A stretch of DNA of 64,000 nt from Candidatus Nanopelagicales bacterium (GTDB lineage Bacteria; Actinomycetota; Actinomycetes; S36-B12; CAIYMF01). The notes under the pieces were generated by a model. The model was not told where the DNA came from. It did not search any database and saw only the letters and a program-made list of their open reading frames with translations. Position 1 is the stretch's first letter. Every line of letters starts with the position of its first letter. The DNA lies in contig JAFIHG010000044.1 in the NCBI GenBank assembly GCA_017848795.1, positions 28,046 to 92,045 of the forward strand. Reading direction: 5' to 3'. Shown in pieces: positions 45,529 to 64,000 of this stretch. The position numbers and the translations under genes are program-made.

Positions 45529-46506
45529 TCACACCTCGCTGTCCGAGGGCGTCGGGTAGGCGGCCAGCGCCTCGCGGGCCGCGGCGGCGACCCGGTCGGC
45601 CAGCTGCGGCGGTGAGACGACGCGCGCGTCGGCGCCGAGGCGCAGCAGCAGCCGTACGATCCAGCGCTCGTCGGCGACCGGCAGCGTCACCCGCACGGCC
45701 CCACCGGCGCGCGGCTGCACCTGGTCCACCGGGTACTCCTCGGCGACCCAGCGGGCCCCGGCGAGCAGGTCGAGGGTGACGGCGGCTCCGGCCGGTCGCA
45801 GCCCGTCGCGGCCGAGCTCGGGAGGTGCGGCCTCGGCCGGTACGGCGGCCGGCTCGTCCCGCAGGTCGCAGGCCAGGATGCGGTCCAGGCGGAAGGTGCG
45901 CGAGGCACCCGCGCTGCGGCACCACGCCGAGAGGTACGGGCGCCCGTCGACGGAGAGCAACGCCACCGGGTCCACCACCCGCTCGCTCACCTGGTCCCGC
46001 GCCGCCCCGGCGTACCGGATGTGCAGCGCGCGCTGCTCGTCCAGGGCCCGCCGGACACACTCGGCGACCGCAGGATCGACGCGCTCCTCGACGGTGACCG
46101 AGACCGCGGCACGCCCCGCCGCCGCGGCACCCGCCGCGTCCTCGAGCTTCGCGGTCACCGAATCGATCAGGGCGCGGTCGTGACCGCCCGGCACCTGCGC
46201 GAGCACGCGCAGCGCGACGAGCAGCGCGGCGGCCTCCTCCGCGGTGAGCCGCAGCGGGCGCCCCAGGGACTGCGGGTCGAGGACCTTGACCGTGCCGTCG
46301 TCCCAGTACCAGATGTCGACGAGCTCGCCGTGCTGCTGGCCCGGTCCGCTGCAGATCAGCAGGTCCAGGTCGGCGACAAGCGCATCGGTCGTGACCCCGA
46401 AGTGGTCCGCGGCCTCCGTGAGCGTGATCCCCGGGCGGGACAGCAACCACGGGACCAGCGCCAGCAGGCGCGAGAGCCGGGCCCCGGCGCCCGCGGGGCT
46501 GCTCAC
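45529..46506 (-). CDS. pafC: PafC (HTH-WYL regulator)
   Basis: RLSRLLALVPWLLSRPGITLTEAADHFGVT (HTH) followed by a WYL-type domain. GTG 46506 overlaps the pafB stop (GTGA). Confidence 0.8.
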   Translation of the reverse strand: MSSPAGAGARLSRLLALVPWLLSRPGITLTEAADHFGVTTDALVADLDLLICSGPGQQHGELVDIWYWDDGTVKVLDPQSLGRPLRLTAEEAAALLVALRVLAQVPGGHDRALIDSVTAKLEDAAGAAAAGRAAVSVTVEERVDPAVAECVRRALDEQRALHIRYAGAARDQVSERVVDPVALLSVDGRPYLSAWCRSAGASRTFRLDRILACDLRDEPAAVPAEAAPPELGRDGLRPAGAAVTLDLLAGARWVAEEYPVDQVQPRAGGAVRVTLPVADERWIVRLLLRLGADARVVSPPQLADRVAAAAREALAAYPTPSDSEV

Positions 46507-47525
46507 GACGCCCCCCGCGCCGCGGCGAGTGCGGCGCGCAGCCGGCGCACCACGGCGGCCTGCAGCGCCTGCGGGGCAAGGACCTGCACGGCAGGGCCGT
46601 GCCCGACGAGCCGGTCGGCGAACGACTCGTCGTCGCCGTAGTCGAGCTCGAGCAGGTCCCATCCGGGGTCGTCCGGGCGGACCGCGGCCGCTGCCCGCCG
46701 CAGCGAGGCCGCCTCGCCGCTGCGGACCCGGATCCGGGCGCGGTGCTGGCTGTCGCTGTCGGCCTGGGCGACGAGCGCGCCGAGATCGGGGGCGTCCGGC
46801 GTCTGATAGCTGCCTTCCGGCCCGTCGGGCATCACCTTGCCGCTGACCCGGGACAGCCGGAACACCCGGACCGCCTGCCGGTCACGGTCGCGCCCGACGA
46901 CGTACCAGTGGCGGCGGCGGGAGACGACACCCCACGGCTCCAGGTGCCGCTGCGTCGGTACGGCCTCGTCCGGCCGCCGGTAGTCGAAGCGCACCGGCCG
47001 GCGTGCCTGGCTGGCCGCGAGGAACGCCCCGAACGAGGGCTCGGGCGTCGTCAGCCGGGCGATGACGCCGACCGAGTCCTCCCGGGCGGTCCCGCCGGCC
47101 GCCTCGAGCTTGCGCAGCGCATTGCGCGCCGCCGGTCCGAGACTGGCCTGCTCCCACACCTGCGCGGCCAGCCCGAGGACCGTCAGCTCGGCGCTCGTGA
47201 AGCTCACCTCCGGCAGCGCGTACTCCTGGTCGAGCACCCGGTACCCGTCGATCCCGCCGGCCCCCTGCGTGCCCTCGACGGTCTGGATCGGGATGCCCAT
47301 CGAGCGCAGCTCTTCTTTGTCGCGCTCGAACATCCGCTCGAACGCGCCCTCGCTGGGGCTCGCGGCGTAGTCCGGCAGGGCCTGGCGGATCGTGGCCTTG
47401 GTCACCGGGTGGCGGGAGGCCATGAGCAGGAACAGCAGACCGAGCAGCCGCTCGGTGCGCTCCCCCGGCCGTGGTGGCGCAGCCACGCGCTCCGGGAGGT
47501 CCGGCTCGCCCGACCCGGTGGTCAT
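46503..47525 (-). CDS. pafB: PafB (HTH-WYL regulator)
   Basis: RTERLLGLLFLLMASRHPVTKATIRQAL..., and a WYL-like ...RRRHWYVVGRDRD. Confidence 0.8.
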   Translation of the reverse strand: MTTGSGEPDLPERVAAPPRPGERTERLLGLLFLLMASRHPVTKATIRQALPDYAASPSEGAFERMFERDKEELRSMGIPIQTVEGTQGAGGIDGYRVLDQEYALPEVSFTSAELTVLGLAAQVWEQASLGPAARNALRKLEAAGGTAREDSVGVIARLTTPEPSFGAFLAASQARRPVRFDYRRPDEAVPTQRHLEPWGVVSRRRHWYVVGRDRDRQAVRVFRLSRVSGKVMPDGPEGSYQTPDAPDLGALVAQADSDSQHRARIRVRSGEAASLRRAAAAVRPDDPGWDLLELDYGDDESFADRLVGHGPAVQVLAPQALQAAVVRRLRAALAAARGAS

Positions 47526-51029: not shown

Positions 51030-51773
51030 CTACTGGAGTTCGGCGGGCGCCTGCTCCTCGGTGTCCTCCACCCCGAGCAGCTCGGCGAGGCGCGCGCTGG
51101 CGAGCCGCCGGAAGGTGCGCCGGGGCCGGCTGCGCTCGAGCACCGCCACCTCGAGCTGCGCGGGGGTCAGCGCCCGCGGCTCGCCGTCCCCGCCACCGGG
51201 CGCGCCGTGGCGGGCCAGGGCGTCGACCGCCACCCGCAGCGCGCCGGCGAGGTCCATCGACTCGGACCAGTGCTCGCGCAGCTCGGCGGTGATCGCGTCC
51301 GCGGACCCGCCCATCGCGACGAAGCCGTGCTCGTCCGCGACCGAGCCGTCGAAGGTCAGCCGGTACAGCTGGTCGTCCGCCGCGATGAGGCCCACCTCCG
51401 CGATCGTGATCTCCACCTCGTACGGCTTGGTGGTCTCGGTGAAGATCGCGCCGAGGGTCTGCGCGTAGGCGTTCGCGAGCGAGCGGCTGCTGACGTCGCG
51501 CCGGTCGTAGGAGTAGCCGCGCATGTCGGCGAGCCGTACGCCGGCCACCCGCAGGTTCTCGAACTCGTTGTAGCGGCCGACCGCCGCGAACGCGATCCGG
51601 TCATAGATCTCGCTGACCTTGTGCAGCGCCCGGCTCGGGTTCTCGGCGACGAACAGGATCCCGTCGGCGTACTGCAGCACGACGACGCTGCGCCCGCGCG
51701 CGATGCCCTTGCGGGCGAAGTCCGCCTTGTCCTTGGTGATCTGCTCCGGGGAGACGTAGAACGGGACGCTCAT
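51030..51773 (-). CDS. prcA: 20S proteasome alpha subunit
   Basis: [47 protein letters not shown]... Confidence 0.95.
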
Positions 51774-52648
51774 GGTGTCTCCGTTCCGCCGGTTGCGGGG
51801 CCGACTTCGGTGACCGGTGCCACGGGCCCGTCAGCGGTCGCTGTCCGGCGCGCCACGATCGCGCGGGCGAGCGGGTCGAGCTCCTCGTCGGGGACGCGGC
51901 GGTAGCCGTCGGCGCCGACCTGCGCGACGACCGGGTAGATGCGCCGGGTGAGATCCGGCCCGCCGGTCGCCGAGTCGTCGTCGGCCGCGTCGTACAGGGC
52001 CTCCATGGCGACGCTGATCGCGTCCTGCTCGGACAGGTCCTCGCGCCAGAGCTTCTTGAGCGACCCGCGCGCGAAGAGCGAGCCGGAGCCGACCCCGTGG
52101 TGGCGGTGCTCCTCGTAGCGCCCGCCGGTGACGTCGTAGCTGAAGATCCGCCCGCTCCCGCGTTCGAGATCGAATCCGGCGAACAGCGGCACGACCGCCA
52201 GGCCCTGCATGGCCATGCCCAGGTTGCCGCGCAGCATCAGCGAGAGCCGGTTCGCCTTGCCCTCCAGCGAGAGGATGACGCCCTCGATCTTCTCGTAGTG
52301 CTCGAGTTCCACCTGGAAGAGCCGGACCATCTCCACGGCGATGCCTGCCGTACCCGCGATGCCGACGCAGGACCACTCGTCGGCGGGGAACACCTTCTCG
52401 ATGTCGCGCTGCGCGATGATGTTGCCCATCGTGGCGCGCCGGTCGCCGGCCATCACCACTCCGCCCGGATAGGTCACCGCGACCACCGTCGTCCCGTGGG
52501 GGGCCTCGAGCGCGCCCGGACCCGCCGTCGTGGCGCGCCGTCCGGGAAGCAGTGACGGGTCGTGCGAGGCGAGGAACTCGGTGAACGAGCTGCTGCCCCC
52601 CGCGAGGTACGCCGGTGGCAGGCCCGACCCGTTCCAGCTCCCGCTCAC
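51770..52648 (-). CDS. prcB: 20S proteasome beta subunit with propeptide
   Basis: Propeptide then the HG/TTVVAV active-site Thr junction and [12 protein letters not shown] 52648 was chosen; the longer 52843 start would overlap the endonuclease VII gene. Confidence 0.9.
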
Positions 52649-53292
52649 GCTGCTCCCGTCCCGCCGACACCGCCGAAGTACATGTAGCCCTCCAGATAGT
52701 CCACCGCGCTCAACAATCGACGAGGATCGTCCTTGAAGTTGCCGAGGCCAACATTGCAGGTGAAGCACAACAAGCCGCGCACCGCCCCCGTCCCGTGGTC
52801 GTGGTCCACGTGTTCGGCGGCTTCGATGTGGCAGATCGCGCATAGCCCTCGCTGCTGTGCGAACAACTCGTCGAATTGATCCACGTCGATCGCGTAGCGT
52901 CGGCGCATGTGGTACCGACGGTTACCGCCATTCTTCTCGCGAGAGGCTGTCGCGCGCTTGTTCTGACACGGTCGGCAGTAGCTGCCATAGCCTGTTCGGG
53001 TCGAGCGGTTCTTCACGAACAGGTCGAGCGGCAGCACCACCTCACAGTCAGGGCAGTACTTCATGCCGTCCGGCGCCGTCACCGTCGCCCGGTGCTTGAT
53101 CGTCCGACCATCTCGTGCCGCGCGTCGCTCTGCAGCGCGCCGATTGTGTTCGGACATGCAGGCTTTGCAGTACACGGACAGACCGTCCTTCTTCGACCGG
53201 TCACCCGTGAAGTCAGTGAGCGGTTTGCGGACCTTGCAGCCTCCGCAGCGGCGCCCGGTTCGTGCTATGTCTTCCTCCCCCCGTGTGGCCAT
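52645..53292 (-). CDS. Zinc-finger + recombination endonuclease VII domain protein
   Basis: C-terminal LCAICH...[26 protein letters not shown] (Endonuclease_7 signature). The N-terminus has two CxxC...YCxxC modules. Codon usage is atypical. The ATG abuts the pup stop and the stop overlaps the prcB GTG. Confidence 0.8.
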
Positions 53293-53505
53293 CTACTCAC
53301 CGCCCTTTTGGACGAACGCCCGTACGAATTCCTCGGCGTTCGTCTCGAGGACGTCGTCGATGTCGGCGAGGATCGCGTCGATGTCGTCGTCGAGCGCGGC
53401 CTTGCGCTCGGCGAGGTCGCTGCTCGCCTGGGGAGCCTCTTCGACCTCGGCCTCTTCCTGGGTGCGGCTGACCTTCTGCTGGTCGCCGCTGTCTCGCGTT
53501 GCCAT
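53293..53505 (-). CDS. pup: Prokaryotic ubiquitin-like protein Pup (C-terminal GGE)
   Basis: MATRDSGDQQK...DDIDAILADIDDVLETNAEEFVRAFVQKGGE. A GGAGG Shine-Dalgarno sequence lies just upstream of ATG 53505. Confidence 0.95.
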   Translation of the reverse strand: MATRDSGDQQKVSRTQEEAEVEEAPQASSDLAERKAALDDDIDAILADIDDVLETNAEEFVRAFVQKGGE

Positions 53506-53597: not shown

Positions 53598-55112
53598 TCA
53601 CGCCCCGAGCGCCGCGAGCAGGTCGGCCGCGTTGGGGCTCGACGCGAGCAGCTCGCCCACGTGCGCCCGGGTGCCGCGCAGCGGCTCCATCGTCGGTACG
53701 CGCTGCAGGGCATCCCGACCCGGGATGTCGAAGATCACCGAGTCCCAGGACGCGGCGGCGATCTCGGCGCCGTACCGGCGCACGCACTCGCCGCGGAAGT
53801 ACGCACGGGTGTCCTCGGGCGGCGAGGACACCGCGTGCGCGACCTGCTCCTCGGTCGTCAGCCGGGTGAGCCGGCCGCGCGCCTGCAGCCGCTGCGCGAT
53901 CCCGCGCGTCGGCTCGACGTCGGCGTACTGCAGGTCGACGAGCGCCAGCCGCGGGTCGTCCCAGTCGGTGCCGTCCCGGTCGCGATATCCCTGCAGGACC
54001 GACAGCTTCGTCACCCAGTCCAGCTCCCCGGACAGCGACATCGGGTCCGCGAGCAGCCGGTCGAGCACCGTCTCCCACCGGTCGAGGACGTCGGCGGTCT
54101 GGCTGTCCACGTCCACGCCGTAGCGGTCCTCGACGTACTTGCGGGCCTGCTCGCAGAGCTCGATCTGCAACTGCACCGCCGTCAGGGTGCGGCCCGACAC
54201 GGTCGTCAGCTCGTGACCGAGCGACCAGTCGTGGGAGACGTCGTGCATCTCCCGGACCGGGTGCGTGAGTGTCAGGTCCAGGTCGAGGAAGCCGTCCTCG
54301 ATCATGGCGAGCACCAGCGAGGTGGTGCCGAGCTTGAGGTAGGTCGAGAGCTCCGAGAGGTTCGCGTCACCGACGATCACGTGCAGCCGGCGGTACTTGT
54401 CGGGGTCGGCGTGCGGTTCGTCGCGGGTGTTGATGATCGGACGCTTCAGCGTCGTCTCCAGCCCGACCTCGACCTCGAAGTAGTCCGCCCGTTGCGAGAT
54501 CTGGAACCCGCTGCCGCGCCCGTCCTGGCCGATGCCGACCCGTCCCGCACCGGTGATCACCTGCCGGGTGACGAAGAACGGCGTCAGGTGACGGACGATC
54601 GCCGCGAACGGGGTCGAACGCTGCATCAGGTAGTTCTCGTGCGTGCCGTACGAGGCGCCCTTGTTGTCGGTGTTGTTCTTGTAGAGGCGCACCTCGCGCC
54701 CGCCCGGCAGGTGCGGCACCGACTCGGCGGCCCGCGCCATCACCCGCTCGCCGGCCTTGTCCCAGAGCATCCCGTCCCACGGGTTCGTGACCTCGGGACT
54801 GGAGTACTCGGGGTGCGCGTGGTCGACGTAGAGCCGCGCGCCGTTGGTCAGGATCAGGTTCGCCAGGCCCAGGTCGTCGTCCGTCAGCATGCTCGGGTCG
54901 GCCTCGGCCCGCGTCAGGTCGAACCCGCGGGCATCGCGCAGCGGGGTCTCCTCGTCGTAGTCCCAGCGCATCGCGGTCTGCCGGCCCTGCGCCACTGCAT
55001 GCGCGTACGCACTGACGACCTGGCTGCTGGTGAGCATCGCGTTGACGTGCGGGTGTCCCGGTACGGAGACGCCGTACTCCGTCTCGATCCCCATCACCCG
55101 GTGCACGCTCAC
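53598..55112 (-). CDS. dop: Depupylase/deamidase Dop
   Basis: [14 protein letters not shown]...LTNGARLYVDHAHPEYSSPE... PafA paralog next to pup. Confidence 0.95.
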   Translation of the reverse strand: MSVHRVMGIETEYGVSVPGHPHVNAMLTSSQVVSAYAHAVAQGRQTAMRWDYDEETPLRDARGFDLTRAEADPSMLTDDDLGLANLILTNGARLYVDHAHPEYSSPEVTNPWDGMLWDKAGERVMARAAESVPHLPGGREVRLYKNNTDNKGASYGTHENYLMQRSTPFAAIVRHLTPFFVTRQVITGAGRVGIGQDGRGSGFQISQRADYFEVEVGLETTLKRPIINTRDEPHADPDKYRRLHVIVGDANLSELSTYLKLGTTSLVLAMIEDGFLDLDLTLTHPVREMHDVSHDWSLGHELTTVSGRTLTAVQLQIELCEQARKYVEDRYGVDVDSQTADVLDRWETVLDRLLADPMSLSGELDWVTKLSVLQGYRDRDGTDWDDPRLALVDLQYADVEPTRGIAQRLQARGRLTRLTTEEQVAHAVSSPPEDTRAYFRGECVRRYGAEIAAASWDSVIFDIPGRDALQRVPTMEPLRGTRAHVGELLASSPNAADLLAALGA

Positions 55113-55175: not shown

Positions 55176-55508
55176 CTACACCTTGGCGACGGTGAGCAGG
55201 ACGGCGCTGTCCTCGAAGGCGTGGACCGAGTGCCGCTGCGCCGGGATGACCAGCAGGTCCCCGGCGCTGCCTTCCCACGAGTCCGCGCCGGCGTCCAGGC
55301 GCACCCGCCCGCTGAGCACCTGCAAGGTCGCCTCGCCCGGGCTCTCGTGCTCGGTGAGCTCACGCCCGGCGGCGAGCGCCACCACCGTCTGACGCAACGA
55401 GTTGGAGTGGCCGGACACCACGCTCTCGGCACTTCGCCCGGCGGGCGCCTCCTTGGCCCGTCGGAGCTGCTCGCGCGCGGTCGCGGTCAGCGAGAGCTTG
55501 TTCGCCAT
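55176..55508 (-). CDS. Cupin-domain protein
   Basis: 110 aa. ...LTEHESPGEATLQVLSGRVRL....GDLLVIPAQRHSVHA has a cupin-like beta-barrel pattern. ATG 55508 shares a base with the upstream DUF488 stop. Confidence 0.6.
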   Translation of the reverse strand: MANKLSLTATAREQLRRAKEAPAGRSAESVVSGHSNSLRQTVVALAAGRELTEHESPGEATLQVLSGRVRLDAGADSWEGSAGDLLVIPAQRHSVHAFEDSAVLLTVAKV

Positions 55509-55867
55509 CAGTTGCCTCCAGCCAGCAGGTCGCGCAGCACCACCGCCTGGTTGTGCTGCTCGTCCTTGGCAGAGTAGACGAGGGTGATCGTCCGGTGCGC
55601 GCCGGTGAGCTCGCGCAGATGATCGGCGGCCGGGTTGTCGGCGAGCTCGGAGCGGTAGCGCTCGGCGAACTCGGTGAACCGTTCCGGGTCGTGCCCGAAC
55701 CATTTGCGCAGCGCATCGGAGGGACCGGCCGCCTTGACCCACTCGTCGACGTGGGCGTGCTCCTTGCTCACCCCGCGCGGCCACACCCGGTCGACGAGTA
55801 CCCGGTAGCCGTCACTGCGCGCCGGTTCCTCGTAGACCCGCTTGATCCGGATCGTCGCCCTTGCCAT
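55508..55867 (-). CDS. DUF488 family protein (YeaO-like short form)
   Basis: IRIKRVYEEPARSDGYRVLVDRVWPRGVSKE...W.K...PS..LRKWFGHDPERF.EF..RY..EL...TLVYSAKDEQHNQAVVL. Confidence 0.75.
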   Translation of the reverse strand: MARATIRIKRVYEEPARSDGYRVLVDRVWPRGVSKEHAHVDEWVKAAGPSDALRKWFGHDPERFTEFAERYRSELADNPAADHLRELTGAHRTITLVYSAKDEQHNQAVVLRDLLAGGN

Positions 55868-59853: not shown

Positions 59854-60738
59854 ATGAGTGCCGAGACGATCGCGCCGCCCGACCGGTCGGGGGGCGCGTC
59901 CGACGCGTCGTCGCCGACCGTGCCCGCGCCGCCCTCGCTCTCGCCCTCCCGGGCGAGCGACTTCATGACGTGCCCGCTGCTCTACCGCTTCCGCGTGCTG
60001 GACCGGCTCCCGGAGCCGCCGAGCCGGCCCGCCCTGCGCGGCACGCTGGTGCACCGCGTCCTGGAGGACCTGTTCGCGCTGCCGGCGCACGACCGCACGC
60101 TCGACCGGGCGATCGGCCTGGTCCCCGCGGCCTGGGAGGCGCTCACCGCCGCGGAACCCGAGGCGAGCGGGCTGTTCGAGTCCGCTGCCGATCTCGCCGA
60201 GTGGATCAAGGGGGCCGACCAGCTGCTGCGCACGTACTTCGAGCTGGAGGACCCGCAGCGCCTGGCACCGACCGCCCGCGAACTGCGGGTCGAGGCGACG
60301 ATGCCGGACGGGCTGGTGCTGCGCGGGTTCGTCGACCGCCTCGACACCAACTCGGCCGGGCAGACCCGCGTCGTCGACTACAAGACCGGCCGCGCGCCGC
60401 GTCCGGAGTTCGAGCAGCGGGCGCTGTTCCAGATGCGCTTCTACGCCCTCGTGCTCTGGCGCTCGACGGGCGTGCTGCCGAGCGTGTTGCAGCTGCTCTA
60501 CCTCGGCAGCGGCGAGGTGCTGCGCTACCAGCCCGACGAGCGCGACCTGCGCGCGACCGAGCGCAAGGTGACGGCGCTCTGGGCGGCGATCTCCCGTGCC
60601 ACCGAGACCGGCGACTGGCGGCCGAGCCCGTCGCGGCTCTGCGACTGGTGCAGCCACCGCGCGCTCTGCCCGGCCTGGGGCGGCGAGCCGCCACCACTGA
60701 CGCAACCGGGGGGTTCGCCAGGCCTGGAGACTGGGTGA
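59854..60738 (+). CDS. RecB-family PD-(D/E)XK nuclease (Cas4-like Cys cluster, Rv2119-like)
   Basis: FMTCPLLYRF..., GFVDRLD, VVDYKTG and C-terminal CDWCSHRALCP. Confidence 0.75.
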   Translation: MSAETIAPPDRSGGASDASSPTVPAPPSLSPSRASDFMTCPLLYRFRVLDRLPEPPSRPALRGTLVHRVLEDLFALPAHDRTLDRAIGLVPAAWEALTAAEPEASGLFESAADLAEWIKGADQLLRTYFELEDPQRLAPTARELRVEATMPDGLVLRGFVDRLDTNSAGQTRVVDYKTGRAPRPEFEQRALFQMRFYALVLWRSTGVLPSVLQLLYLGSGEVLRYQPDERDLRATERKVTALWAAISRATETGDWRPSPSRLCDWCSHRALCPAWGGEPPPLTQPGGSPGLETG

Positions 60739-60772: not shown

Positions 60773-61516
60773 GTGGAGCAGACCCCGACCGCGGCGCGGG
60801 CGCGCGCGCTCACCAAGGTCTATGGCGCGGGAGCGGCACAGGTACGGGCGCTCGACGCCGTGGACGTGGACGTCGAGCGGGGACGCTACACCGCGGTGAT
60901 GGGGCCCTCCGGCTCGGGCAAGAGCACGTTGATGCACTGCCTGGCGGGGCTGGACTCCGTGACGTCGGGAGATGTCTGGCTCGGCGAGGTCGAGCTCAGC
61001 CGGCTCGCCGACCGCGAGCTCACCCGGCTGCGCCGCGACGCGGTGGGCTTCGTCTTCCAGTCGTTCAACCTGCTCCCGACGCTCACCGCGCTCGAGAACA
61101 TCACCCTCCCGATCGATATCGCCGGGCGGCGCCCGGACCCCGCGTGGCTGGACGTGGTCATCGACACGGTCGGGCTGCGGGACCGGCTCCGGCACCGACC
61201 GAGCGAGTTGTCCGGGGGCCAGCAGCAGCGCGTCGCGTGCGCCCGCGCGCTCGCCAGCCGCCCGCAGATCGTGTTCGCCGACGAGCCCACGGGGAACCTG
61301 GACTCGCGCTCGAGCGCCGAGGTGCTCGGCTTCCTGCGGCGCAGCGTCGCGGAGTTCGGCCAGACCATCGTGATGGTGACGCACGATCCGGTCGCCGCGG
61401 CGTACGCCGACCGGGTGCTGTTCCTCGCCGACGGCCAGGTCGTGGGCGAGCTGCGCGAGCCGACTCCCGAGCGCGTACGCGAGCGGCTCGCGGCCACCGA
61501 CCCGGCCTCCGTCTGA
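60773..61516 (+). CDS. ABC transporter ATP-binding protein (MacB/LolD/FtsE class)
   Basis: GPSGSGKSTL, LSGGQQQRVACARAL, IVFADEPTGNLD. Confidence 0.9.
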   Translation: MEQTPTAARARALTKVYGAGAAQVRALDAVDVDVERGRYTAVMGPSGSGKSTLMHCLAGLDSVTSGDVWLGEVELSRLADRELTRLRRDAVGFVFQSFNLLPTLTALENITLPIDIAGRRPDPAWLDVVIDTVGLRDRLRHRPSELSGGQQQRVACARALASRPQIVFADEPTGNLDSRSSAEVLGFLRRSVAEFGQTIVMVTHDPVAAAYADRVLFLADGQVVGELREPTPERVRERLAATDPASV

Positions 61517-61530
61517 GAGCCCCTGCGCCG

Positions 61531-64000
61531 ATGCTCCGTACGTCGCTGCGCTCGCTGGCCCAGCACCGGCTCCGGCTCGCGCTCACCGTCGTCGCGGTCG
61601 TCGCCGGGGTCGGCTTCGTCACCGGCACGTACCTGTTCACCGACTCGCTGCAGCGCGCGTTCGACCGGCTCTTCGACCTCCGCCAGCCCGACGTCACGGT
61701 GAGCCGGCAGCTGCCGGGGCAGGCGGCCACCGGGGGCGCCGCCGGCGGTGCCGAGCGGACCCTGCCGGCCGCGCTCGTCGACCGCATCGCGAAGGTGCCC
61801 GGCGTCGCCGCTGCGTACGGCGTCGTGACCGACGGTTCGGCGACCGTGATGACGGCGGGAGGTGAACCGCTCGCCCGCTTGGGACAGCGCACGACCGGGA
61901 CCTCCTGGGTGCCCAACCCGCGGCTGCGCGGGTACGACCTGGTCTCCGGGCGAGCGCCGATCGGCCGCGGCGAAGTGGCGCTGCTCGCCTCGACGGCCGC
62001 CCGCGCCGGTGTCACGGTGGGTGGCACGGTGCGCGTGGACACCCCGGGCGGGGTGATCGAGCCGACCGTCGTCGGGCTGGTCGAGCGGCCGATCGCCGGT
62101 ACGGACGGCGGCACGCTCGTGGTCTTCGACCTGCCGACGGCCCGCCGCCTGCTGCTGGAGGGCCGTGCCCAGGTCACCTCCGTTGTCGTCGCGGCCGCCC
62201 CCGGGATCGACCAGCAGCGTCTCGCCGACCGCATCACCGACGTGCTGCCGCCGGACGCGCGCGCCGAGACCGGCCGCTCCCGCAGCGCCGACCTCGCCGC
62301 GCGGCTGCAGGACGCGTTCACCTTCCTCAGCACCTTCCTGCTGGCATTCGCGGGCATCGCGCTGCTCGTCGCCGGATTCCTCATCTACAACACGTTCACC
62401 ATGCTCGTCGCGGCGCGTACGCGGGAGCTGGCGTTGCTGCGCGCGGTCGGCGCCAGCCGCGGTCAGGTCCGCCGCGCCGTCCTCGTCGAGGCCGCAGCGG
62501 TCGGGACGGTCGCCGCCGGACTCGGCCTGGTGGCGGGGATCGGCGTGTCGGGGTTGCTGCGCAGGCTCTTCGAGGCGTTCGGCGTCGACTTGCCGGGCGG
62601 TCCGCTGGTGGTGGAGCCGCGCACCATCGCGGTCGCCCTGGTCGTGGGCGTCGTCACCACGGTCGCCTCCGCCTACCTGCCCGCCCGCCGGGCGGCACTC
62701 GTCCCGCCCGTCGCCGCGATGCGTGAGGAGCTCGAGCTGCCGGCCCGCTCGCTGCGCGGCCGGACGCTGCTCGCGCTGCTGCTGGTGGTGGCCGCAGTGG
62801 TCCTCGCGCGCACCGGGCTGCAGCTCGTCGACGACGTCGAGCGGGCTGCCGCCTACCTCGGTGGCTCGGCCGTCTGCGCGCTCGTGGCGCTCTTGGCAGG
62901 AGCGCCGCTCGTGGGGCGGGGCGCGCTGCGGGTGCTGGGCGCCCCGCTCACCCGGTGGCCGGTCGGCCGGCTCGCCCGTGAGAACGCCCGGCGCAACCCC
63001 CGGCGCACGGCTGCGACGGCGGCGGCGCTGGCGATCGGGTTGGCCGTGATGAGCGCGGTCGCGGTGATCGCGGCCTCGACCAAGTCCTCGGTCGCCGAGG
63101 TCGTCGACGACACCGTCGGCGCCGACTTCATCGTGGCGAGCGCGAACCTGCGACCCTTCACACCGCGCGCGTACGAGGCCCTCGCCGGGACACCGGGGAC
63201 CTCGGTCGTGACCTTCAGCCGCGCCGTGGCGCTCACCCTGGACGGGACCCAGCACCCGGTGATCGGCGTCGAGCCGGAGCAGTTCGCGAAGGTCTTCAAG
63301 ATCACCATGGCGCAGGGCAGTTTCGCGGATCTCGCCTTCGGCGGCGCCGTCGTCGACGAGACGACCGCGCGCGAGGCGCACCTGCAGCTCGGACAGACCG
63401 CGCACGTGGAGTTCCTGAACGGACCAGGGCGGTTGCGGATCGACGGGATCTACCAGGCCTCCGGTGCCGCACAGGGTTTCGTCGTCACGTTGCCCACGCT
63501 GGCGGCGGCCGGCTCCCTGGAGCGCGACACGGCGATCTACGTCCGTCTGGCACCCGGAGCCGACGCCGCGACGGTGCGTACCGCCCTCGAGCAGCGGCTG
63601 GCTCCGGTGGGGGCGTTCCAGGTCCTCGACCGCACCGAGCTCAAGGAGCAGATCGACGCGCAGTTCGACCGGGTGTTCGGCTTCGTGTACGCGCTGCTGG
63701 CGCTCGCCGTGATCGTCGCGTTCCTCGGCATCGTCAACACCCTCGCGCTCTCGGTGCACGAACGCCGCCGTGAGATCGGCCTGCTGCGCGCGGTCGGCAC
63801 CAGCCGCCACCAGCTGCGCGTCATGGTCGTGCTGGAGTCGGTGCTGGTCGCGGTCCTCGGCGGCGTCGTCGGGATCCTGCTCGGGGTGTTGTACGGCGCG
63901 CTGCTGCAACGGGTCCTGGCCGCGCAGGGGGTCTCGACGCTGTCGGTGCCGGTGGCGCAGCTGGGCTGGTTCGTCGCCGTCTCCGCGGCCGGTGGGCTGC
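61531..64000 (+). CDS. FtsX-like ABC transporter permease (double FtsX-domain type), C-terminus beyond the right edge
   Basis: Absent from the ORF track because it has no in-window stop. My translation from ATG 61531 gives MLRTSLRSLAQHRLRLALTVVAVVAGVGFVTGTYLFTDSLQRAFDRLF. Later FLIYNTFTMLVAARTRELALLRAVGASR and ...NTLALSVHERRREIGLLRAVGTSR are the two FtsX signatures. Confidence 0.8.
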   Translation, partial: MLRTSLRSLAQHRLRLALTVVAVVAGVGFVTGTYLFTDSLQRAFDRLFDLRQPDVTVSRQLPGQAATGGAAGGAERTLPAALVDRIAKVPGVAAAYGVVTDGSATVMTAGGEPLARLGQRTTGTSWVPNPRLRGYDLVSGRAPIGRGEVALLASTAARAGVTVGGTVRVDTPGGVIEPTVVGLVERPIAGTDGGTLVVFDLPTARRLLLEGRAQVTSVVVAAAPGIDQQRLADRITDVLPPDARAETGRSRSADLAARLQDAFTFLSTFLLAFAGIALLVAGFLIYNTFTMLVAARTRELALLRAVGASRGQVRRAVLVEAAAVGTVAAGLGLVAGIGVSGLLRRLFEAFGVDLPGGPLVVEPRTIAVALVVGVVTTVASAYLPARRAALVPPVAAMREELELPARSLRGRTLLALLLVVAAVVLARTGLQLVDDVERAAAYLGGSAVCALVALLAGAPLVGRGALRVLGAPLTRWPVGRLARENARRNPRRTAATAAALAIGLAVMSAVAVIAASTKSSVAEVVDDTVGADFIVASANLRPFTPRAYEALAGTPGTSVVTFSRAVALTLDGTQHPVIGVEPEQFAKVFKITMAQGSFADLAFGGAVVDETTAREAHLQLGQTAHVEFLNGPGRLRIDGIYQASGAAQGFVVTLPTLAAAGSLERDTAIYVRLAPGADAATVRTALEQRLAPVGAFQVLDRTELKEQIDAQFDRVFGFVYALLALAVIVAFLGIVNTLALSVHERRREIGLLRAVGTSRHQLRVMVVLESVLVAVLGGVVGILLGVLYGALLQRVLAAQGVSTLSVPVAQLGWFVAVSAAGGL

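Follow-up and report, generated by a model that had tools for sequence, protein, structure and literature searches.

The junction gene and its product

We analyzed a 64,000-nucleotide stretch of DNA from a Candidatus Nanopelagicales bacterium (GenBank assembly GCA_017848795.1, contig JAFIHG010000044.1, positions 28,046 to 92,045; hereafter the window, numbered from its first letter), in which a gene for a putative zinc-ribbon nuclease of the Endonuclease_7 (His-Me finger) family lies between pup and prcB of the Pup-proteasome operon. The gene occupies 52645..53292 on the minus strand (215 aa, stop codon included in the coordinates), an assignment based on the list of open reading frames (ORFs), Pfam (PF02945) and PHROG matches, substitution ratios and an AlphaFold2 model. 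Immediately upstream is pup (53293..53505, minus strand), encoding a 70-aa protein with a C-terminal GGE and 89% identity to the Pup (PF05639) of L001, a related locus. Downstream are prcB (51770..52648, minus strand), for the proteasome beta subunit, whose product is 87% identical from residue 1 to that of the PF00227 gene of L001, and prcA (51030..51773, minus strand), for the alpha subunit. The gene upstream of pup is dop (53598..55112, minus strand), encoding the Pup deamidase/depupylase, 86% identical to the product of the PF03136 gene of L001.

The pup stop codon (TAG, 53295-53293) abuts the nuclease ATG (53292-53290) with zero bases between them (53290..53295, minus strand), and the nuclease TGA (52647-52645) overlaps the prcB GTG (52648-52646) in a GTGA at 52645..52648 of the same strand. 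No alternative in-frame start was found 5' of the first Cys codon in the window ORF. The TAGATG and GTGA junctions would permit translational coupling, and the searches made here returned no terminator-like site on the coding strand of the pup-to-prcB interval of the window and, in a consensus promoter scan, nothing in the window operon. An earlier note on this DNA, made from the sequence alone, had described the 215-aa ORF, its zero-base contact with pup, its GTGA overlap with prcB and its tight packing in the pup-prcBA operon, all of which were confirmed. The absence of intergenic bases holds for the window but not as a general feature, because the spacing in other carriers varies between an overlap of 49 nt and a gap of about 300 nt; the zero-base and 4-nt-overlap packing is specific to the lineage of the window type.

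The product matched Pfam PF02945 (Endonuclease_7; His-Me finger group 13) with E=3e-22 and 78.8 bits against a cut-off of 23.6, over residues 128-201 and profile positions 3-81 of 82, and three PHROG families (2633, 1035 and 2914) with E-values from 2e-46 to 1e-27, the best being the "endonuclease VII" family phrog_2633 (E=2e-46). The NCBIfam models gave no match to the nuclease, and the sole return from PADLOC was the Type II restriction model REase_II (E=4.7e-9), in the same region that matches the restriction enzyme Hpy99I. More than 1,000 homologues were returned by a protein database search and pairwise ratios of nonsynonymous to synonymous divergence (dN/dS) were 0.24-0.43 (0.24 against L001), which together argue that the ORF is more than a chance reading frame.

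Three predicted Cys4 sites organize the protein: each of the two zinc ribbons near the N-terminus has one, and the third lies in the nuclease core. Zinc ribbon 1 (residues 16-45; 53158..53247, minus strand), located from alignments and the structural model, contains C16, C19, Y41, C42 and C45 and is followed by a helix to about residue 60, and zinc ribbon 2 (residues 80-109; 52966..53055, minus strand), with C80, C83, Y105, C106 and C109, aligns with the extra Cys4 ribbon of Hpy99I. The Endonuclease_7 catalytic domain (residues 128-201; 52690..52911, minus strand) was delimited from the Pfam envelope, the matches to Hpy99I and T4 endonuclease VII, and Foldseek. Within it, alignment to 1e7d equates the active-site motif H161-V-D163-H164-D165-H166 (52795..52812, minus strand) with D40/H41/H43 of T4 endonuclease VII, and C176-F-T-C179-N180 (52753..52767, minus strand) would supply the second half of the nuclease zinc site and the metal-binding Asn (C58, C61 and N62 in T4). 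The complete zinc site, C151/C154/C176/C179, aligns with T4 C23, C26, C58 and C61, and D163, H164, H166 and N180 align one-to-one with T4 D40, H41, H43 and N62. Motif residues were numbered from family alignments. In those of 36 and 45 sequences, zinc ligands and catalytic residues were invariant or at least 90% conserved, and the HVDHDH motif was invariant across the 45.

The AlphaFold2 model, computed from 45 family members, had a mean predicted local distance difference test score of 89.9 and a predicted template modelling (TM) score of 0.58. It places strands at 28-30 and 38-42 and a helix at 43-60 in the region of zinc ribbon 1, and in the core strands at 161-164 and 171-175 followed by helices at 177-186, which is the order of a beta-beta-alpha fold. 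Foldseek ranked Hpy99I first (prob 0.96, 27% identity), followed in the PDB by a weak match to the tandem zinc finger of yeast Stc1 (prob 0.57, E=0.02); TM-scores were low because the three modules are flexibly linked, in keeping with the overall score of the model. Among viral predicted structures (BFVD) there were 117 matches at E<=1e-3, many of them full-length "endonuclease VII/HNH" proteins of phages and giant viruses. To the extent that sequence can decide the matter, the product is a His-Me-finger DNA endonuclease, stabilized by zinc and dependent on metal, that carries two additional zinc-ribbon modules, and the profile matches and conserved cysteines uphold the earlier note, which had recognized an endonuclease VII relative with two zinc modules.

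Distribution, composition and descent

The closest database proteins, 67-72% identical, came from metagenomes only, and the highest identity to anything on record was 72-73%. For one of these proteins, P0003, a pup-X-prcB order was found on two contigs with the same 4-nt prcB overlap as in the window, an overlap seen in L001 and in an 8.4-kb Joint Genome Institute (JGI) contig, both with the nuclease in the pup-prcB slot. The neighbouring genes of L001 are 86-91% identical to those of the window, and its junction nuclease is 68% identical.

In M. tuberculosis, prcB directly follows pup. A search with the window Pup as query, taking one genome per species, yielded 80 loci, to which L001 was added. 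An endonuclease VII homologue stood directly after pup in six of these (L001, Blastococcus sp. URHD0036, Geodermatophilaceae URHA0031, two Actinomadura and one Actinomycetota metagenome-assembled genome, or MAG), and the remaining 75, including Arthrobacter/Pseudarthrobacter, Mycobacteriales, Jiangellales, Pseudonocardia, Beutenbergiaceae, Bifidobacterium, Microthrix and Acidimicrobiales, had no nuclease there. With a Kitasatospora genome added, the nuclease was absent from 76 of the pup-prcB loci sampled, so that it does not accompany the Pup-proteasome system across Actinobacteria. All more distant homologues with readable contigs were also at the junction, in Blastococcus brunescens, Pseudofrankia inefficax, Actinomadura rudentiformis and a 4.2-Mb MAG contig. 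Streptomyces loci were fetched with a Streptomyces-type Pup sequence used as bait only; three genomes (L087-L089) had a PF02945 gene of 196-197 aa, 32 nt past pup and overlapping prcB by 49 nt. The suggestion in the earlier note that some actinomycetes carry an extra ORF at this junction proved correct for Streptomyces, Actinomadura, Pseudofrankia and Geodermatophilaceae.

A metagenome scan with the family alignment produced a further 80 loci, 46 of which were at the pup-prcB junction, including all of the 38 best. Another 32 lay elsewhere; all were weaker matches, mostly on low-GC contigs, and the flanking genes sampled at the non-junction loci encoded a terminase, a head-tail adaptor, a head protease and a ribonucleotide reductase. 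The window gene is therefore one of a group of cellular orthologues, specific to the junction, that falls within a family of phage nucleases.

The full nuclease ORF was intact in essentially all carrier loci, and its architecture varied. Orthologues of 308-414 aa in Actinomadura, Pseudofrankia and the 4.2-Mb MAG have tandem Endonuclease_7 domains, both with an intact HVDHxH...CxxCN, and look like single-chain pseudo-dimers (tandem-domain genes at L011:4303-5547, L016:611-1789, L083:3001-3927, L085:3001-4095 and L086:3001-4071). A single zinc ribbon was found in L053 and in several metagenomic junction genes. An additional 1.5-2.3 kb separates the nuclease from prcB in Actinomadura and one metagenome contig (L085:4052-5572, minus strand; L011:5550-7220; L136:3020-4775), which in L085 corresponds to a 506-aa ORF on the opposite strand without a Pfam match, indicating that the junction has accepted other DNA too. 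The Blastococcus brunescens locus has a 244-aa opposite-strand gene between dop and pup (L082:1707-2441), and its prcB was called as two overlapping ORFs of 201 and 113 aa (L082:3761-4617), reflecting a frameshift or a sequencing error.

The GC content of the nuclease gene is 0.631 and that of its third codon positions (GC3) 0.764, compared with GC3 values of 0.92 for prcB, 0.98 for prcA, 0.96 for pafA, 0.95 for dop and 0.95 for arc; a crude set of window genes had a mean of 0.90 (sd 0.06), and pup 0.87. The atypical codon usage reported in the earlier note is therefore real, but in every carrier measured the nuclease GC3 was 0.69-0.85 versus 0.85-1.0 for dop, prcB and prcA of the same hosts, which makes the depressed GC3 a trait of the family and not a sign of recent transfer. 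The GC3 of pup in carrier loci was also lowish (0.70-0.89), and the synonymous divergence (dS) of pup was 0.7-1.1 versus 0.26-0.53 in dop, prcB and prcA for the same genome pairs.

Neighbour-joining trees of the nuclease and of Dop, compared for topology only, shared local clades (Actinomadura with L086, the window with L001, and the two Blastococcus). The exception was the copy of Geodermatophilaceae URHA0031 (L004:4235-4945), a deep and misplaced branch of the nuclease tree with only 37-43% identity to sister taxa whose Dop is 87-89% identical; either a divergent allele has replaced the original here, or this copy has diverged exceptionally. Comparison of the gene with its hosts gave a mixed outcome, with clade-wide presence among carriers and local congruence on one side and this discordant copy, the difference between Streptomyces and Kitasatospora and mosaic alleles on the other. 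In Kitasatospora sp. NPDC101801, the 151-nt spacer between pup and prcB (L090:3720-3873) aligns, with frame-breaking indels, to the Streptomyces coding stretch around the active site, PAIHVDHCHETGRVRGV, with a score of 43 against 18.9 +/- 2.6 for shuffled sequences (reached by none of 500) and about 20 for control genes. When the family hidden Markov model (HMM) was run on six-frame translations of the spacers, Kitasatospora ranked first, as 'VDHgpqaGRVRG', a match that is not significant alone. This remnant places the nuclease in the common ancestor of Kitasatospora and Streptomyces, followed by decay; no remnants beyond Kitasatospora were detected in the other empty junctions by tblastn or by the family HMM on six-frame spacers. 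These comparisons indicate an orthologous group of phage ancestry, long resident between pup and prcB in several lineages, inherited mostly vertically and occasionally lost by decay.

Three apparent patterns were discarded. Pairs suggesting long-range transfer (distant PrcB, nuclease identity up to 69%) span only a 125-residue conserved core of shorter, one-ribbon forms, and the same short matches confound a negative overall correlation between PrcB and nuclease identities. The appearance of L103 as a close host with a 42% identical nuclease was an artefact of mixed query sets, as L103 is a Streptomyces-type locus.

In the wider neighbourhood, the genes identified were arc, DUF488, dop, pup, prcB, prcA, pafA, a membrane protein, FKBP, a WYL/WCX regulator, tatA/C, a helicase, an M50 peptidase and a PD-(D/E)XK nuclease. 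The WYL/WCX (PafB/C-type) gene at 46503-47525, about 5-6 kb from the nuclease, is the PafBC-type gene that the earlier note had placed some 6 kb away. Between arc and dop lies a DUF488 gene of the N3 subclade (119 aa; 55508-55867, minus strand), and the order arc/DUF488/dop is common to L001 and the related 8.4-kb JGI contig. Just past arc and the M50 peptidase gene are a PD-(D/E)XK nuclease-family gene (59854-60738, plus strand) and an adjoining 1007-aa ORF (60886-63909, minus strand) for which no Pfam match was found. No methyltransferase was present among the neighbouring genes scanned or identified, a scan that covered part of the ORFs of the window, and no further copy of the nuclease was found within the window.

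Selection, expression and candidate roles

For the same genome pairs, nuclease dN was 0.26-0.72 versus 0.04-0.11 in dop, prcB and prcA, or 2.6-10.9 times higher. Divergence was concentrated in the zinc ribbons and the linker; between close hosts the ribbons were mostly 45-55% and the core mostly 75-86% identical, and core dN/dS was 0.11-0.31 for most close pairs. In the closest pair, L082/L098, PrcB is 97% identical and the nuclease only 65%, and nucleotide identity falls from about 90% in pup to 35-65% in the zinc-ribbon region, starting at the pup stop codon, before rising to 80-88% in the nuclease core and above 90% in prcB. Differences at four-fold sites under conserved residues amounted to 0.65 in the ribbons, 0.56 in the core, 0.42 in pup, 0.38 in prcB and 0.39 in dop, although a flank GC3 of about 0.95 constrains synonymous sites, so that this comparison cannot alone separate allele replacement from relaxed codon bias. 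In Streptomyces, two classes of nuclease allele coexist in hosts with 85-93% identical PrcB, and the metagenomic L118 allele (L118:264-1004, compared with L087, L117 and L106) is clearly chimeric, with type A to type B informative sites in ratios of 71:10 in the zinc-ribbon region, 7:22 in a core stretch of about 195 nt and 36:7 in prcB. TTA (bldA) codons were absent from the Streptomyces copies except for one in the upstream ORF extension of L118.

Expression could be followed in S. coelicolor through SCO1645 (1759272-1759865, minus strand; 197 aa), listed as a 'hypothetical protein' in the supplement of Jeong et al. 2016 (PMC4895711), 33 nt past pup (SCO1646) and overlapping prcB (SCO1644) by 49 nt. 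From its position, size and overlaps we presume it to be the orthologue of the Streptomyces junction nucleases of L087-L089. Over four growth phases, mRNA values (Dataset 4 of PMC4895711) were 558, 1554, 3282 and 5362 for pup, 1249, 2955, 5636 and 8390 for SCO1645, and 3123, 6011, 9794 and 11633 for prcB, with ribosome footprints (Dataset 7) of 12, 108, 149 and 207 for pup, 15, 181, 140 and 120 for SCO1645, and 176, 582, 553 and 393 for prcB. The mRNA and footprints of SCO1645 track those of pup and prcB, so the gene is expressed with the pup-prcBA unit in S. coelicolor.

The main transcription start sites (TSSs) of this unit are upstream of pup, with a weak one inside pup, and a prcB TSS maps at 1759412, 92 nt upstream of prcB and within SCO1645 (PMC4895711). 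In L087 (4192-4205), a -10-like hexamer, TAGGGT, precedes the equivalent position, at -13 to -8. Its bases belong to the G-R-V codons adjoining the active site of the nuclease, and five of six further Streptomyces-type loci retain it, as does the Kitasatospora remnant. Signals for prcB expression embedded in the 3' end of the nuclease ORF would be a plausible anchor for the gene in Streptomyces, and are a caveat for knock-outs.

The association with this operon is already in print. In one sentence, Jablonska et al. 2017 (NAR 45:11479, PMC5714182) place an actinobacterial group of the family after pup and before the gene of the proteasome beta subunit, and in the same passage they propose that it acts in the Pup-proteasome system. 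Iyer, Burroughs and Aravind 2008 mention no nuclease, the passages searched of two Pup-proteasome reviews (PMC8223512, PMC3511204) describe the locus without this gene, and SCO1645 is named in no searchable paper. The window protein is thus a further member, at no more than 72-73% identity, of a known and annotated but uncharacterized family, in agreement with the earlier note, which knew of no functional description. Nor was any of the four outcomes observed that the note had listed as contrary to its proposal, since the GC3 does differ from that of the neighbours, the HMM does match, SCO1645 has both mRNA and footprints, and the gene is neither universal nor characterized.

We consider it somewhat more probable than otherwise that the junction gene encodes a conflict-type dimeric DNA endonuclease, either a restriction-like defence or a once-mobile selfish element now fixed, riding in a well-expressed operon. 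A conserved core with quickly changing ribbons, recombining alleles, a restriction enzyme as the nearest structure, dispensability in many lineages and the absence from 76 loci all favour such a role over that of a housekeeping repair enzyme or proteasome accessory. In this mechanism the beta-beta-alpha-metal site (D163, H164, H166 and N180) would cut one DNA strand per domain, and the working unit would contain two active sites, in a homodimer or, in the tandem-domain orthologues, in a single chain, producing paired nicks or a double-strand break. T4 endonuclease VII is a Holliday-junction resolvase, and both it and Hpy99I act as dimers; the tandem-domain forms suggest that here too two active sites act together, which is the basis for proposing paired cleavage. 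The zinc ribbons would supply DNA recognition. The gene would ride in the operon without being a core component of the Pup-proteasome system or of housekeeping repair, and in Streptomyces it would be further anchored by the prcB expression signals in its 3' end.

Several points weigh against this interpretation. Both the substrate (sequence, structure or modification) and the role of family members are things that we infer, and we know of no zinc ribbons acting as readers of modified DNA. A solitary restriction-like nuclease must spare its own genome, and no way of doing so is evident. The quick divergence of the zinc ribbons, with dN/dS below 1, could be relaxed constraint and not diversifying selection, just as the higher synonymous divergence of the nuclease (0.56-0.65 vs 0.38-0.42) could reflect no more than a relaxed GC3 constraint. 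The data on co-transcription and translation come from S. coelicolor only, where the orthology of SCO1645 was assigned by position, size and overlaps. Finally, generic hitch-hiking leaves unexplained the strict position beside pup over several orders, which could mean a real tie to the Pup-proteasome system.

Such a tie is the essence of one alternative, in which the protein is a branched-DNA or damage nuclease dosed by co-expression with pup-prcBA, and perhaps by pupylation, linking proteolysis to repair, recombination or stationary-phase DNA turnover. The strict placement of the gene beside pup and prcB in several orders, its expression in step with pup, dop and prcB through the growth phases of S. 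coelicolor (PMC4895711), its homology to T4 endonuclease VII, the one-sentence suggestion of Jablonska et al. 2017 (PMC5714182) and the link drawn in a passage of PMC8223512 between the Pup-proteasome locus and the PafBC DNA-damage response are all in its favour. However, the nuclease evolves far more quickly than any neighbour (dN 0.26-0.72 vs 0.04-0.11), lacks the C-terminal domain of T4 endonuclease VII and is nearer to a sequence-specific restriction enzyme than to a resolvase. Its absence from the 76 sampled loci and, according to the earlier note, from M. tuberculosis, as well as its loss in Kitasatospora, further lower the chances of an accessory role, which we regard as quite improbable. 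A free-standing homing endonuclease, which would cut the empty pup-prcB junction or the conserved 3' end of pup and be copied into the break during conjugation or recombination, is unlikely as well, although many observations could be accommodated by it: the constant site between two highly conserved genes with minimal spacers, the His-Me/HNH fold with phage relatives and a phage-like outgroup, the low GC3 in every host measured, the patchy pattern (absence from 76 pup-prcB loci, among them Arthrobacter, Mycobacteriales MAGs, Jiangellales and Kitasatospora), the degenerate Kitasatospora copy that a homing cycle predicts, the L004 copy at 37-43% identity to sister taxa despite a Dop at 87-89%, the mosaic alleles, and tandem-domain forms that recall single-chain homing enzymes. 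On the other hand, the gene is clade-wide within the Streptomyces, Actinomadura and Geodermatophilaceae samples, leaving few empty targets, and yet its core is under purifying selection; the carrier loci examined included just a single decayed copy, no near-identical nucleases were found in distant hosts (the apparent ones being the 125-residue core), the boundaries vary from -49 to about +300 nt, unlike those of a precise recent insertion, and pup is intact beside the gene, so that a target inside pup is not disrupted.

Persistence of the ORF as a functionless relic, kept just as DNA carrying prcB signals (a ribosome-binding site, an internal promoter or coupling), would fit the S. coelicolor prcB TSS 92 nt upstream of prcB and inside the ORF, the preservation in the Kitasatospora remnant of precisely the piece that holds the TAGGGT of the active-site-adjacent codons, and the overlap of the ORF with the prcB start in the window and in Streptomyces. 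It is nonetheless very improbable, given that essentially all carriers keep the full ORF with conserved zinc ligands and catalytic residues, that dN/dS stays under 0.45 for the whole gene and near 0.1-0.3 in the core, and that SCO1645 carries ribosome footprints. A foreign insertion that is recent and confined to this genome, as the heading of the earlier note would have it if taken literally, is scarcely tenable. The GC3 of 0.76 against 0.92-0.98, the zero-base junctions and the lack of a database record for the exact protein invited that reading, but it is already contradicted by a relative whose neighbouring genes are 86-91% identical and whose own copy, 68% identical, fills the same slot and shares the 4-nt overlap, by the depressed GC3 of all measured carriers, by synteny across orders and by local clades that follow the Dop tree. 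Describing the gene as a foreign insertion is misleading.

A more far-reaching reading can be put forward only tentatively, namely that the junction may host a fast-evolving conflict nuclease with swappable zinc ribbons for DNA recognition, working either as (a) a solitary restriction-like defence, perhaps checked by pupylation and proteasomal turnover, or as (b) a chromosomal, free-standing homing endonuclease spread by conjugation among mycelial actinomycetes and targeting the conserved pup-prcB junction. If (a) or (b) were true, the element would be of a sort so far undescribed at core proteostasis operons in bacterial chromosomes. A conserved and, by its residues, catalytically intact nuclease is present inside a heavily studied core operon of Streptomyces, Actinomadura, Frankia relatives and Geodermatophilaceae, and is expressed in S. 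coelicolor. The S. coelicolor deletion of SCO1643-1646 by Compton et al., as reported in a passage of PMC8223512, also removed SCO1645, by coordinates, and because a prcB transcription start lies inside the nuclease gene, nuclease and proteasome phenotypes can be confounded. The operon would gain a further layer if the nuclease turned out to serve defence, to be selfish or to be controlled by pupylation, and a passenger would still be a clean example of a phage nuclease locked into a host operon by overlapping expression signals.

Comparison with known nucleases

Hpy99I (PDB 3FC3/3GOX) is the best sequence match among solved structures (E=3.6e-8, query residues 78-203 to chain residues 76-198). 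The two proteins share a beta-beta-alpha-Me core, in which a Cys4 site is embedded, and a further Cys4 ribbon immediately before it; in contrast, no part of the window protein aligns with the initial 75 or so residues of Hpy99I, its own residues 1-76 forming a zinc ribbon and helix instead. The partner methyltransferase expected beside an enzyme of the Hpy99I type was not among the neighbours scanned or identified. T4 endonuclease VII (gp49; PDB 1EN7, 1E7D, 2QNC) is a weaker match (E=5e-5, T4 residues 13-86) from the same Pfam family, with which the zinc cysteines, the D/H/H/N residues and the following 'VDYLE' helix are conserved. The C-terminal part of gp49 (beyond about residue 86 of 157) is absent, as the window protein stops some 14 residues past the aligned helix, and two N-terminal zinc ribbons are added relative to the T4 enzyme.

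The same full architecture is found in phage zinc-ribbon endonuclease VII or 'HNH endonuclease' proteins, such as those of the Streptomyces phages PumpkinSpice and Spilled and the Arthrobacter phage MargaretKali, with 34-37% identity over 87-90% of the protein. Those genes occupy varied positions in phage genomes, whereas the window gene is one of a cellular subgroup whose members are 40-72% identical to one another and keep a fixed place in the chromosome; the Streptomyces junction form is only 35% identical to the window protein. Free-standing homing endonucleases (T4 Seg/Mob, or HNH enzymes such as I-HmuI) resemble it in being small His-Me/HNH-fold genes located between conserved genes, with atypical composition, fast evolution and patchy occurrence. 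The phage homing endonucleases, however, are phage-borne and sporadic among close relatives, in contrast to the window-type gene, which is chromosomal, clade-wide in its carriers, mostly congruent with its hosts locally and under purifying selection. Its place is in the pup/prcB-associated Endonuclease_7 group of Jablonska et al. 2017, which by position includes SCO1645.

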